The position numbers and the translations under genes are program-made. Of a stretch of DNA of 64,000 bases, positions 54,488 to 56,506 are shown in pieces. The first letter of the stretch is position 1; every line of letters starts with the position of its first letter. The DNA comes from a virus. The notes beneath the pieces are model-generated. The model had not been told where the DNA came from and searched no databases. It worked only from the letters and a program-made list of their open reading frames with translations. The stretch is taken from positions 1 to 64,000 of the IMG/VR virus record IMGVR_UViG_3300022074_000015, one strand, 5' to 3'.

Positions 54488-54742
54488 ATGAAAATTATCC
54501 ATGAAAATTGTGATCAAGAATTGGCAAACGATAAGACACTGCCAAACAATGCATTTATAATTGAATATAAAGTTGATGACGTATCCTACTATGACATTGT
54601 TGTAGCAGCAAAGCAGTCAGAAATATTCGACCACTATTATGATAAGTATAAGAGTGGTTTCATTACCATGAAGCAAGCAGAAGGTAGAATTAGTCCTAAA
54701 CTTTGGGGCAACGAGCCTCCAAAAAGCAAAAAGAAAAAATGA
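54488..54742 (+). CDS. Cyanophage hypothetical protein
   Basis: 84 aa ORF starting MKIIHENCD. Confidence 0.7.
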   Translation: MKIIHENCDQELANDKTLPNNAFIIEYKVDDVSYYDIVVAAKQSEIFDHYYDKYKSGFITMKQAEGRISPKLWGNEPPKSKKKK

Positions 54743-55278
54743 TTGATGTAATATCCATCAAAGATTTCTACCATCCTGATAAAGACCAGAAAGAATCAGT
54801 AATTAGTGTCTTAGAACAGAATCGTAAATATGCTAATTATGATTTAGGATTTAATTTTCCTATTATAGATACCAAAGATTTATTTTTTGCCAACTTATAT
54901 GATCAATTTTTTCTAAAATGTCAGTCTATTTTTGGTAATTTTAAATTATCACTTAGAAATAGTAGAACATGTTATTGTTACCTTGATCGAAAAAAGTATT
55001 ATTTACCATCAGTATACCATAATCATATTTCAACCTCTACGATTAACGGAGTTTACTACTTAGATGTAGGTGAGGGTGATGGTATTTCTTTCATAGATGA
55101 TGAATATGATAAAGAAGAAGTTTATAATGTATCCACAGGTGAATTATTAATCTTTGCGAATCATTTGGTTCATAAACCAAATAGACCAACTCACGACGGA
55201 ATTAGATACTCATTGAACATGGAAATAAAGACTGATGAGTCTGCGGAAGAAATTTTTAGTAGGGATAGGTCTATATAA
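54739..55278 (+). CDS. 2OG-Fe(II) oxygenase-like protein
   Basis: YHNH...NGVYY...IF..LVHKP...RYSLN. Confidence 0.7.
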   Translation: MIDVISIKDFYHPDKDQKESVISVLEQNRKYANYDLGFNFPIIDTKDLFFANLYDQFFLKCQSIFGNFKLSLRNSRTCYCYLDRKKYYLPSVYHNHISTSTINGVYYLDVGEGDGISFIDDEYDKEEVYNVSTGELLIFANHLVHKPNRPTHDGIRYSLNMEIKTDESAEEIFSRDRSI

Positions 55279-55366
55279 CCATCTCAAATCAAAATTGAGA
55301 AGTAATTTCCAAAATCGGCGGAAAAAAAATCGCCAAAATTTTTTGATTTCTAAGATTTTATAAAAT

Positions 55367-55382
55367 TGTAACACAAGTTACA
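55367..55382 (+). promoter_or_regulatory. NtcA-binding site
   Basis: TGTAAC-ACAA-GTTACA, a perfect GTA-N8-TAC palindrome ending 7 nt upstream of the -35 box. Confidence 0.8.
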
Positions 55383-55389
55383 TAACTAC

Positions 55390-55418
55390 TTGACTACATA
55401 GAGTATAGGAGTTATACT
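55390..55418 (+). promoter_or_regulatory. Sigma70-type promoter
   Basis: TTGACT-N17-TATACT; predicted start ~55424-55426, just before the riboswitch. Confidence 0.8.
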
Positions 55419-55437
55419 ACTCTAGTACGTTCATCCC

Positions 55438-55638
55438 ATGCTCAGCATACTGCTGGCATTAACCCTTGCCCATCATAATGATGCGTCACCTTACGGGTGG
55501 CACATAAGTTGTGAAAGGTTTCTACAGAGAAGAATTGAAATCCTTATGGATGACAATTTTGATCGAAGAACTAAGTATAACTTAATAAGTTATCTTAGAT
55601 CGAAGTTAGAAGGTCAATGCAATCAGACGCTGACATAG
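55438..55638 (+). CDS. 66-aa protein nested in aptamer 1 P2
   Basis: ATG directly after CGTTCATCCC; TAG within the 3' strand of P2; hydrophobic N-terminus, two Cys. Confidence 0.65.
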   Translation: MLSILLALTLAHHNDASPYGWHISCERFLQRRIEILMDDNFDRRTKYNLISYLRSKLEGQCNQTLT

Positions 55639-55673
55639 GACGCAAGTAAGTCGCGGAACGGAGCGTTCATCCC

Positions 55674-55835
55674 ATGTTTGAATTTTTACTTTACTCTGGT
55701 ATTCACTGCACCGATGCTAAGGATATGATCCGACGTATTAATGCGAATAAAAGTGTAGATGTTATTATCAGAACTGAGGTGATTGAGACCATAAAGGGAT
55801 CAACACCTGAGTGTAAATGGGACGCAAACGACTGA
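55674..55835 (+). CDS. 53-aa protein nested in aptamer 2 (MFEFLLYSGIHC...PECKWDAND)
   Basis: Manual translation (not in the ORF track); GGAG 10 nt upstream; ATG directly after the second CGTTCATCCC. Confidence 0.65.
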   Translation: MFEFLLYSGIHCTDAKDMIRRINANKSVDVIIRTEVIETIKGSTPECKWDAND

Positions 55836-55904
55836 AGGAACGGGAAACTCGGATCACCCGAAAGGGTTAAAGGAGAAAAATCACCCAACTTCAGGAGTAA
55901 ACAA

Positions 55905-56072
55905 ATGAACACACTCACTCTCATCAAAAAGCAAATCGATAAGCAGTCTGCCCTGCGCGATGCACAACTTACTCACACTGCATATCGTGGTGTTAAGTAT
56001 AATGCTAATCGTGTAGAGTCCAAAGAGACTCACGGCACCTTCTGCTATCGTGGTCGTACTTACACCAAATGA
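55905..56072 (+). CDS. DUF4278-like YRG peptide (55 aa)
   Basis: MNTLTLIKKQ...TAYRGVKY...FCYRGRTY; AGGAG RBS; immediately downstream of the riboswitch. Confidence 0.8.
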   Translation: MNTLTLIKKQIDKQSALRDAQLTHTAYRGVKYNANRVESKETHGTFCYRGRTYTK

Positions 56073-56079
56073 GGCAATC

Positions 56080-56175
56080 ATGGAAGCACTACAAATCACA
56101 AGTGTAATCACATTGGCATGTATTGCTGGAATGTCTTTAATCTATGGTGAAATCCTTCTACTACAAAAAGGTTGA
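56080..56175 (+). CDS. 31-aa single-helix membrane peptide
   Basis: MEALQITSVITLACIAGMSLIYGEILLLQKG; GAGG RBS. Confidence 0.55.
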   Translation: MEALQITSVITLACIAGMSLIYGEILLLQKG

Positions 56176-56185
56176 GGGATATTAA

Positions 56186-56350
56186 ATGCTGAAGATCAAA
56201 CTTTATTATGATCTTCCAGAATACGATCCAGAGATTCACGAGCCTGATAGGGTCTTTAGACTACTAACATATCGTGGAGTGACATATGCTAAATGGGTTT
56301 TTCTTAAATCCAGAGGCATTCAAAATTGGAAAGTTTTCAAGAGAGGTTAA
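56186..56350 (+). CDS. Second YRG-motif peptide (54 aa)
   Basis: ...LLTYRGVTYAKW...; GAGG RBS; stop lies in the terminator. Confidence 0.65.
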   Translation: MLKIKLYYDLPEYDPEIHEPDRVFRLLTYRGVTYAKWVFLKSRGIQNWKVFKRG

Positions 56351-56368
56351 GAAACCTCTCTTTTTTTT
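56341..56368 (+). terminator. Rho-independent terminator
   Basis: GAGAGGTT-AAGA-AACCTCTC-T8. Confidence 0.88.
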
Positions 56369-56506
56369 GTCTTTATGTAACAACTATACAAATGTTAGTG
56401 AATTAACACAAACAGTGTTAAATATTACAGAATTAAGGAATTCGCTTATGTTTTGAAATTTCTGCCATATTATATTTACATTATTTCAAAAATGCGTGGA
56501 GGTTTG

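Follow-up and report, generated by a model that had tools for sequence, protein, structure and literature searches.

Can an RNA that senses a metabolite be built around the very genes that it may regulate? The question is raised by a stretch of 64,000 nucleotides (positions 1 to 64,000 of IMG/VR virus record IMGVR_UViG_3300022074_000015; hereafter, the window), in which two small open reading frames (ORF1 and ORF2) are bracketed by sequence blocks resembling the halves of a glutamine riboswitch and are followed by a third frame, ORF3, with a DUF4278-like product. The window belongs to a marine T4-like cyanomyovirus with a GC content of ~0.38; its nearest GenBank relatives are Synechococcus phages, and the cassette is common to 416 records. 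On balance, we favour reading the locus as a double glutamine sensor with genes nested in its two P2 helices, which would place the nested and the downstream genes under reciprocal control.

Two small genes with self-complementary ends

The window contains just two copies of CGTTCATCCC, starting at 55428 and 55664, and an ATG directly follows each copy. Allowing up to one mismatch yields 4 sites in the window against 2.1 expected, so the repeat is not significant by itself. The frames concerned are as follows.

55438–55638, + strand: ORF1, 66 aa, in the P2A loop
55674–55835, + strand: ORF2, 53 aa, in the P2B loop
55905–56072, + strand: ORF3, DUF4278-like (syn9 gp198), 55 aa, downstream of the sensor

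ORF1 and ORF2 (66 and 53 codons) each terminate at a conserved ACGCAA...GGAACG block, and the two ends of each frame are complementary. The ORF1 stop codon TAG (55636–38) lies inside GCTGA-CAT-a-GGA (55629–40), the complement of TCCcATGcTCAGC (55434–46), and at ORF2, TCCCAT (55670–75) is complementary to ATGGGA (55817–22). The conserved core also supplies the terminal codons of ORF2, GAC GCA AAC GAC TGA (DAND, then stop). An earlier note on this DNA had described the twin repeat, the ATGs and the two ORFs with pairing ends, all of which are borne out by the window sequence.

Loop-less relatives carry a recognizable glutamine aptamer

Covariance models were applied with gathering scores of 35 bits for RF01739 (Glutamine) and 33 bits for RF01704 (Downstream-peptide). 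No Rfam family matched the locus at gathering score. RF01739 had no such match in the whole window or in the 86-kb record, and no glutamine-family match was found on 55380–55920 even at E ≤ 10, in line with the earlier note, which held that covariance scans could overlook the element. Taken by itself, this silence weighs against a glutamine sensor. We ascribe it to the P2 inserts of 190 nt and 140 nt and a P3 span of ~175 nt, which would make the window invisible to RF01739. The orthologous loci of syn9, Syn2, S-SCSM2R and S-CAM1, whose whole genomes were also searched, likewise gave no Rfam glutamine match at the locus.

The comparison set comprised ~330 related phage loci overall, ~245 of which were obtained by scanning IMG/VR with the junction sequence and block A variants. 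Cyanophage glnA matches from an older Rfam release, tabulated in PMC9964418 (Table S7), led us to S-PM2 and S-ShM2. In S-PM2, both loops are empty and the element is an ordinary tandem with short P2 hairpins; in S-ShM2, the first P2 is short and empty and the second is filled by a gp197-like ORF. The older Rfam match in S-ShM2, 235 nt long, covers this layout uncommented (PMC9964418). Among 231 non-redundant loci, both P2 loops were empty in 39, only loop B was filled in 103, both were filled in 49 and only loop A was filled in 6. Relatives thus range from those with two occupied P2 loops through those with one to those with none, and they include the empty-loop variants that the earlier note had proposed to look for.

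These natural loop-less relatives were used in place of an artificially loop-deleted sequence for scoring with Infernal and Rfam. RF01739 matched both-empty relatives at 46.4 bits (locus L115; E = 4.4e-7), 46.2 bits (L205), 40.2 bits (L132) and 39.4 bits (L162), aligning each as a single outer aptamer in the order 5′ block A, P2A, ACGCAAGUA, P3 carrying 37–43 inserted nt, then GAAGGAACG. L115 has core blocks identical to those of the window, a practically identical expression platform and two short loops. The expectation of the earlier note that a model match would appear once the loops were short was therefore correct, and its identification of the blocks as glutamine-riboswitch core halves holds, given that a relative with identical core blocks passes RF01739; the comparison argues for homology of the cores. 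RF01704 (glutamine-II) had no match in the window or the whole record. In relatives, the first half of the element mostly scored 23–30 bits with this model, and the L132 match, at 35.7 bits, is above the cut-off but has a hairpin full of non-standard pairs.

The absence of a covariance-model match in the window could also be taken to mean that gene insertion broke the riboswitch and left the blocks as decaying, functionless remnants. We find this hardly credible. In an alignment of the window with syn9, Syn2, S-SCSM2R and S-CAM1, GACGCAAGTAAGTCGCGGAACGGAGCGTTCATCC is invariant and GGGACGCAAACGACTGAAGGAACGGG is conserved too, the S-CAM1 copy of the latter being out of register through an insertion; the ORFs between these invariant blocks are only ~70% identical at the DNA level, with far lower protein identity. 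Compensatory changes in P2 and P3 extend over 150–200 nt, and the layout is common to hundreds of phages, none of which would be expected of a relic. A scan of 185,579 species genomes found the GCAAGTAAGTCRCGGAACGG block in only 6, and this type of block is practically confined to phage DNA.

At least two of these six ‘cellular’ records have the block on a contig as long as a phage genome, for example a Synechococcus metagenome-assembled genome (contig of 193,981 bp) and a Nonlabens assembly (188-kb node); such contigs may be of phage origin and have entered the records through binning or co-assembly with cellular DNA.

Covarying P2 helices close over the nested genes

The helix strands that flank the two nested ORFs were delineated from the minimum free energy (MFE) fold and from covariation.

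55434–55446, + strand: 5′ strand of P2A, UCCcAUGcUCAGC, which includes the ORF1 start codon (55438–40); pairs with 55629–40 in the MFE fold, and covaries
55629–55640, + strand: 3′ strand of P2A, GCUGA-CAU-a-GGA, which includes the ORF1 stop codon UAG (55636–38); MFE fold and covariation
55670–55675, + strand: 5′ strand of P2B, UCCCAU, which overlaps the ORF2 start codon (55674–76); covariation
55817–55822, + strand: 3′ strand of P2B, AUGGGA; covariation and MFE fold

Compensatory changes in P2 among orthologues, anticipated by the earlier note, were seen across both ORFs. Across ORF1, P2A takes the forms UCCUAUG/CAUAGGA (stop UAG), UCUUAUG/CAUAAGA (UAA), UCUCAUG/CAUGAGA (UGA) and UCCGAUG/CAUCGGA, such that the type of ORF1 stop codon (UAG, UAA or UGA) covaries with the bases immediately 5′ of the AUG. 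Across ORF2, P2B appears as UCCC/GGGA, UCCU/AGGA, UCUAUG/CAUAGA and UCCUCAU/AUGAGGA; among 90 distinct sequences, pairing at its four basal positions is complete (100%), and at two of these both partners change, from C-G to U-A. Flanks formed stronger duplexes with their own partners than with swapped ones (−7.6 versus −4.2 kcal/mol for A; −8.6 versus −6.6 kcal/mol for B), and the observed value was reached by 0 of 2,000 permutations for A and for B.

The unconstrained MFE fold of 55425–55912 (z = −5.8 against shuffles) contains P2A, P2B, a GAACG-GAG-CGUUC hairpin and a helix predicted to mask the Shine-Dalgarno sequence of ORF3 (the anti-SD helix). The start codon lies 3–5 nt past CGUUCA, within the helix, in ~50 of the 58 filled A loops and in 152 of the 157 filled B loops. 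Covariation, together with the coding constraint described below, thus upholds the proposal of the earlier note that each P2 helix is closed around a protein gene whose start codon it contains; the genes are conserved, and the long-range P2 helices are real.

The MFE fold also pairs the 5′ GUUCAU (55429–55434) with AUGAAC at the ORF3 start (55905–55910); this is limited to lineages in which ORF3 begins MN... and may be a chance pairing.

Two cores share a single P3 helix

The core elements outside P2 are listed below.

55428–55432, + strand: 5′ strand of P1, CGUUC, outer core (5′ block A), with A55433 as joiner; invariant where the block is present, and Rfam P1 in empty-loop relatives
55641–55648, + strand: J23 of the outer core, CGCAAGUA; fits the Rfam consensus aCGGAAGUA
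55649–55653, + strand: 5′ strand of P3, AGUCG; partner 55829–33
55655–55668, + strand: GGAACG (55655–60), linker GAG (55661–63) and CGUUC (55664–68); GAACG/CGUUC form a local hairpin in the MFE fold
55823–55828, + strand: J23 of the inner core, CGCAAA; conserved block
55829–55833, + strand: 3′ strand of P3, CGACU; partner 55649–53
55834–55842, + strand: J31 GAAG and 3′ strand of P1, GAACG (55838–42), of the outer core; fits the Rfam consensus GAAGGAACG

Block A reads ACGCAAGUA-AGUCG-C-GGAACG and block B reads ACGCAAA-CGACU-GAAGGAACG. As the window has them, block A is without a 3′ strand of P3 and GAAG, and block B is without GUA and a 5′ strand of P3. The earlier note had taken the locus for two independent tandem aptamers, each with its own ‘CGCA...GGAACG’ 3′ block; on this point it is not supported, since each 3′ block supplies one of the two complementary strands of a single P3 helix.

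The P3 pairing was assessed by picking loci solely by their block A strand variants and then reading the unselected block B strand, in a tally of 193 loci. The variant AGUCA pairs with UGACU in ~70 loci, with three exceptions. AAUCG is matched by CGAUU in 15 loci, and in a further linker group of at most 12 loci by CGAUU in all seven listed; AGACU/AGUCU was found in 5 loci, AGUCU/AGACU in 3 and AUUCG/CGAAU in 3. By formal count over 90 distinct sequences, 99.6% of cells are paired and 3 of the 5 pairs change on both sides, and pairing falls to 23–45% when the partners are slid. This covariation indicates that the two cores are not independent and that they share one P3 spanning ORF2.

Could the locus nevertheless consist of two separate units, in each of which CGUUC pairs with the GAACG that closes the ORF of that unit? 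Tandem arrangements of glnA RNAs have been noted before (PMC2864571); S-PM2-type relatives are two complete units whose blocks each have their own small P3 hairpin (AG-CCGA-CU), and each half alone gives Rfam matches of 24–33 bits, below threshold. The blocks of the window type, in contrast, each miss one P3 strand, and the missing halves pair with each other and show compensatory changes; the long, S-PM2-type blocks, for their part, co-occur in A and B. The whole scores above the cut-off as one aptamer, which neither half does alone. We therefore judge two independent units very improbable.

Read from sequence, the outer core has the full type-I (glnA) layout, with P1 (55428–32/55838–42), P2A, ACGCAAGUA (55640–48), P3 and J31 GAAG. 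In solved glutamine riboswitches, the J23 strand sits in the groove of P1, and the ligand pocket is made up by the CGUUC/GAACG helix and the ACGC strand 3′ of P2 (PMC6698751); the predicted ligand-pocket nucleotides, present in two sets, are invariant at this type of locus. In a nested arrangement, the inner core would lie within P3 and consist of the joiner CG, the hairpin GAACG-GAG-CGUUC, an A, P2B and ACGCAAA, keeping the cyclic order of the canonical aptamer but opened at P3. That local hairpin would serve as P1 of the inner core, and all five of its pairs are invariant among relatives. Alternatively, pairing may take place between each CGUUC and the GAACG that lies past the ORF it precedes, which would make P3 a pseudoknot using the identical strands. 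Which CGUUC pairs with which GAACG is something that we infer: the P1 strands CGUUC and GAACG are each present twice and invariant, and the pairing is without covariation support.

We also considered a local circularly permuted aptamer, made of the 3′ part of block A and the 5′ part of block B alone with the outer halves orphaned, and rejected it as the whole story because the 3′ strand of P2A covaries with 5′ block A and not with 5′ block B. In S-CAM1, for example, P2A has UCUUAUG/CAUAAGA while block B remains UCCCAUG.

The joiner of the inner core varies at one position (ACGAAA, ACGGAA, ACGCAC or ACGCAU) in loci in which the outer one stays ACGCAAGUA (L065, L134, L138, L156, L169, L178 and L202).

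The nested frames encode conserved small proteins

ORF1 and ORF2 gave full-length profile matches to the syn9 gp196 family (phrog_6471; E = 7.2e-35) and the syn9 gp197 family (phrog_504; E = 5.6e-22), respectively. The frames are largely intact among relatives and free of the frequent disruption that would have spoken against the earlier note: ORF1 in 51 of 58 filled A loops, with a ratio of nonsynonymous to synonymous substitution rates (dN/dS) of 0.14 and an excess of third-position changes, and ORF2 in 155 of 157 filled B loops, with a dN/dS of 0.25 and third-position changes dominant. By these measures, both nested ORFs are under purifying selection and code for protein. The stop codon of ORF2 is at the in-core position in 141 of the 157 filled B loops, and most of the listed proteins end in DAND.

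Comparison of the two family profiles by hhalign gave a probability of 95% (E = 3.5e-8) with cysteine aligned to cysteine, which makes ORF1 and ORF2 paralogues within one small-protein family. Its members share a short N-terminal hydrophobic stretch and a pair of invariant cysteines. The AlphaFold model of ORF1 is a helical hairpin (predicted local distance difference test score, 80.7), and a Foldseek search of this model against the PDB returned nothing at E ≤ 0.001.

Seven of the 58 filled A loops are without an intact ORF1 running from the P2 AUG to a P2 or core stop; they include L042, with a longer P2 and a later ATG, and L121, with a read-through. One ORF1 subfamily (L021, L065, L076, L124, L158 and others) ends in ...IGRK and a stop, reading GGA CGC AAG UAA; here J23 of the sensor provides the final codons and the stop, mirroring the DAND ending of ORF2.

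Are the genes part of the switch or passengers in a permissive loop? If P2 loops tolerate any insert, the riboswitch could work for the DUF4278-like gene only, P2 complementarity being retained merely so that it folds and the nested genes escaping any meaningful regulation by glutamine. Empty P2 hairpins do vary extremely in length and sequence, with free compensatory changes, which speaks for a permissive loop; the existence of four fill states implies that the sensor does not require the genes; and P2A and P2B both form in the ligand-free MFE fold. The way in which the genes fit the RNA argues the other way. In most filled loops, the start codon has the helix position described above, and stop codons are located in the helix or the core. 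The gp196/gp197 family is confined to the sensor interior in five phage genomes, and of 70 ORF1 loci selected by protein, 67 have both RNA halves, the remaining three being cut by contig ends. The linker adapts as well: GAG is associated with a filled loop B (30/6 versus 14/38; Fisher p = 2.8e-7) and other linkers prevail when B is empty. The GAG linker gives rise to GGAG (55660–63), 10 nt upstream of the ORF2 AUG, which is likely the Shine-Dalgarno sequence of ORF2; the leader ahead of the ORF1 AUG is only ~13 nt long and has none. The joint fit of start, stop, linker and location suggests co-adaptation rather than chance lodging, and we regard the passenger explanation as unlikely.

A predicted reciprocal switch

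Downstream of the core, the expression platform contains three further elements.

55832–55837, + strand: CUGAAG, the anti-SD strand (last two P3 bases and J31); MFE fold and covariation
55889–55897, + strand: CUUCAG (55889–94), which is complementary to CUGAAG and overlaps AGGAG (55893–97), the Shine-Dalgarno sequence of ORF3; covariation
55856–55867, + strand: GAAA-tetraloop hairpin ACCC-GAAA-GGGU between the sensor and the ORF3 Shine-Dalgarno sequence; forms in free and constrained folds

CUAAAG faces CUUUAG in all 83 loci in which the CUUNAGGAG partner was found, and CUGAAG faces CUUCAG in 38 loci and CUUUAG in 23; an A is never opposite a C. The CUGAAG strand is common to the sensor and the anti-SD helix, which implies that folding of the sensor and masking of the Shine-Dalgarno sequence are mutually exclusive. 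As read from sequence and covariation, this is the anti-SD arrangement of an ON switch. Cyanobacterial glutamine riboswitches are documented ON switches in which the ribosome site is freed (PMC6212724, PMC6698751), and by analogy with PMC6212724 ORF3 would be ON with glutamine.

The earlier note placed a DUF4278-like gene downstream of the sensor, and the profile searches agree: ORF3 matches PF14105 (DUF4278) over residues 26–54 at 23.2 bits (E = 9.1e-5), below the gathering score of 25.3 bits, shows the YRG motif and matches phrog_545 (E = 1.5e-31). The tetraloop stem covaries among the five aligned phages (ACCC/GGGU, CAGC/GCUG and CUCC/GGAG). The hairpin is absent from other lineages, for example S-ShM2.

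In the switch that we favour, glutamine binding and the direction of each effect are what we infer from this arrangement. When glutamine is scarce, CUGAAG (55832–37) would pair with CUUCAG (55889–94) and mask the ORF3 Shine-Dalgarno sequence; the start sites of ORF1 and ORF2 would be accessible to ribosomes, chiefly while the RNA is being transcribed, and the passage of these ribosomes would keep the long-range helices from closing. With ample glutamine, the ligand would stabilize P1, P3 and the junctions, withdrawing CUGAAG and turning ORF3 ON, and both nested start codons would be locked in P2, turning ORF1 and ORF2 OFF. A more elaborate form of this switch, with ribosome feedback keeping the sensor unfolded and an inner core that is a natural circularly permuted aptamer sharing a helix with the canonical one, is an attractive possibility that we advance only tentatively.

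Several observations, besides the missing covariance-model match, weigh against the reciprocal switch. P2A and P2B are already present in the ligand-free MFE fold; occlusion of the nested start codons may thus be independent of glutamine, and the nested genes may be restricted to co-transcriptional translation at any ligand level. Forcing the outer P1 and P3 costs ~10.5 kcal/mol over the MFE in the nearest-neighbour model, which by that estimate exceeds what weak glutamine binding alone would supply; we judge this gap uninformative because neither tertiary contacts nor Mg2+ enter the model. In the inner core, the joiners are shortened (CG versus GAAG; ACGCAAA versus ACGCAAGUA), and this core may not bind glutamine. 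None of the loci collected had P1 variants able to separate nested from in-series pairing, and the two are indistinguishable because the P1 strands are identical in both cores and never vary. Finally, the ORF2 UGA lies within CUGAAG; termination of translation there should disrupt the anti-SD helix, which could unmask ORF3 without ligand.

This last point leads to an operon gated by translation, in which ribosome traffic is the main input and the glutamine core merely modulates. Closure of the ends would limit each ORF to a few co-transcriptional rounds of translation, and ribosomes ending ORF2 at its UGA would melt the anti-SD helix and so couple ORF3 to ORF2. The ORF2 stop codon (55833–35) within the anti-SD strand, with its frequent in-core placement among filled B loops, fits such an operon, as do the ~13-nt ORF1 leader without a Shine-Dalgarno sequence and P2 helices that are ligand-independent in the MFE fold. 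Against it, loop-less relatives retain the core and the anti-SD pairing, so the platform works without ORF2, and the ligand-pocket nucleotides are strictly invariant, as would be expected if selection acts on the sensing of a ligand. We consider translation as the main input improbable, and the reciprocal glutamine switch remains the reading that we prefer.

Transcription and neighbouring genes

Four features around the sensor bear on its transcription.

55368–55381, + strand: NtcA-type box GTA-N8-TAC, read from the sequence, ~50 nt upstream of the inferred transcript start
55390–55418, + strand: sigma-70-type promoter TTGACT-17-TATACT, matching 10 of 12 consensus positions
About 56339–56372, + strand: terminator-like hairpin (56339–62) with a 10-bp stem and then a T run, at the end of a small operon, read from sequence
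55317–34: terminator-like hairpin, read from sequence

The NtcA-type box is found upstream in 142 of 210 non-redundant related loci, mostly at a near-fixed distance, which suggests that nitrogen control is exerted at transcription too. The −10 element of the promoter is conserved in the five-phage alignment. Metatranscriptome contigs from four runs in two studies cover the locus from 55425, seven bases past the −10 element, and none covers 55057–55398; RNA contigs cannot prove a transcript start and uncovered parts are no evidence of anything, so these offer only a weak hint of a start at ~55425. One RNA contig bridges 55451–55918. We lean towards placing the element at the head of a small early operon, of which it would form the leader and the first section.

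Some RNA contigs join across ORF2 (55673/55818 and 55684/55817), one of them with 2 extra letters. We rejected splicing or RNA processing across ORF2 as the explanation; the skipping contigs fit empty-loop relatives in the same samples.

The upstream gene at 54703–55278 has a weak match to a 2-oxoglutarate-Fe(II) oxygenase family (PF13759; E = 0.0018, below the cut-off). Downstream, a hydrophobic ORF of 41 codons (56050–56175) overlaps the end of ORF3, and a second small gene of the YRGVxY type (56186–56350; phrog_6192) follows before the terminator.

Implications

Riboswitch aptamers are usually regarded as compact non-coding domains, and here entire protein genes lie inside an aptamer, and selection has maintained helices spanning 140–415 nt across hundreds of marine phages. 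If the reciprocal switch is correct, it would be a new route to the opposite regulation of neighbouring genes from a single sensor, it would tie metabolite sensing to translation, the two competing on one mRNA, and cyanophages would read host nitrogen status directly at the RNA level, beside the NtcA-type promoter box. The glutamine riboswitch class, its tandem forms and its occurrence in cyanophages are already known (PMC2864571, PMC9964418). In the full-text literature, Ames & Breaker 2011 and Ren et al. 2015 being outside the scope, we found no description of genes in aptamer P2 loops or of a P3 common to two cores. Annotation by covariance models overlooks such elements, which implies that counts of phage riboswitches are too low. 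The gp196 and gp197 families acquire a context, and because nature offers loops in every state, from empty through half-filled to filled, the question is open to direct testing.

Comparison with known systems

Elsewhere in biology, structured RNAs harbour genes and long-distance pairings mask start sites. Protein ORFs are known in peripheral loops of self-splicing introns, such as the phage T4 td intron with I-TevI and the domain IV ORFs of group II introns. As there, an ORF sits in the loop of a functional structured RNA, and translation and folding compete. The phage element differs in that the host RNA is a predicted metabolite sensor and not a ribozyme, the proteins are not endonucleases or maturases, and the ends of the ORF themselves make the closing helix. 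In RNA phages, long-distance pairing masks a start site and ribosomes on one strand open it, as in the coat–replicase interaction of MS2. A long-range helix hiding a start site and opened by translation is common to both systems; in RNA phages such as MS2, however, no aptamer contains the helix and no small-molecule ligand takes part.

Among the closest known systems is the glutamine-I riboswitch (RF01739), represented by the leader of Synechocystis gifB/IF17 (Klahn et al. 2018, PMC6212724). The two share the P1 strands CGUUC/GAACG, P2, J23 ACGNAAGUA, P3 and GAAGGAACG in a three-way junction, a position upstream of a DUF4278 gene and an ON-switch arrangement in which folding of the sensor frees the ribosome site, the direction in the phage element being a prediction. 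In contrast to glutamine-I, the phage P2 loops contain protein genes of 49–75 codons with start codons in the helix, and the phage P3 joins distant strands and encloses a second core. The glutamine-II class (RF01704; PMC6698751) resembles the phage element in its pocket nucleotides (CGUUC, the ACGC linking strand and GGAACGG) and in lying upstream of DUF4278-like peptides in marine picocyanobacteria; the phage element differs in having neither the second hairpin that encloses GGAACG nor the H-type pseudoknot. With tandem riboswitches, both the tandem glnA RNAs (PMC2864571) and the S-PM2-type elements, it has in common two cores in series on one leader, but the cores of the window are inseparable, each minus one P3 strand of its own, with a single P3 common to both.

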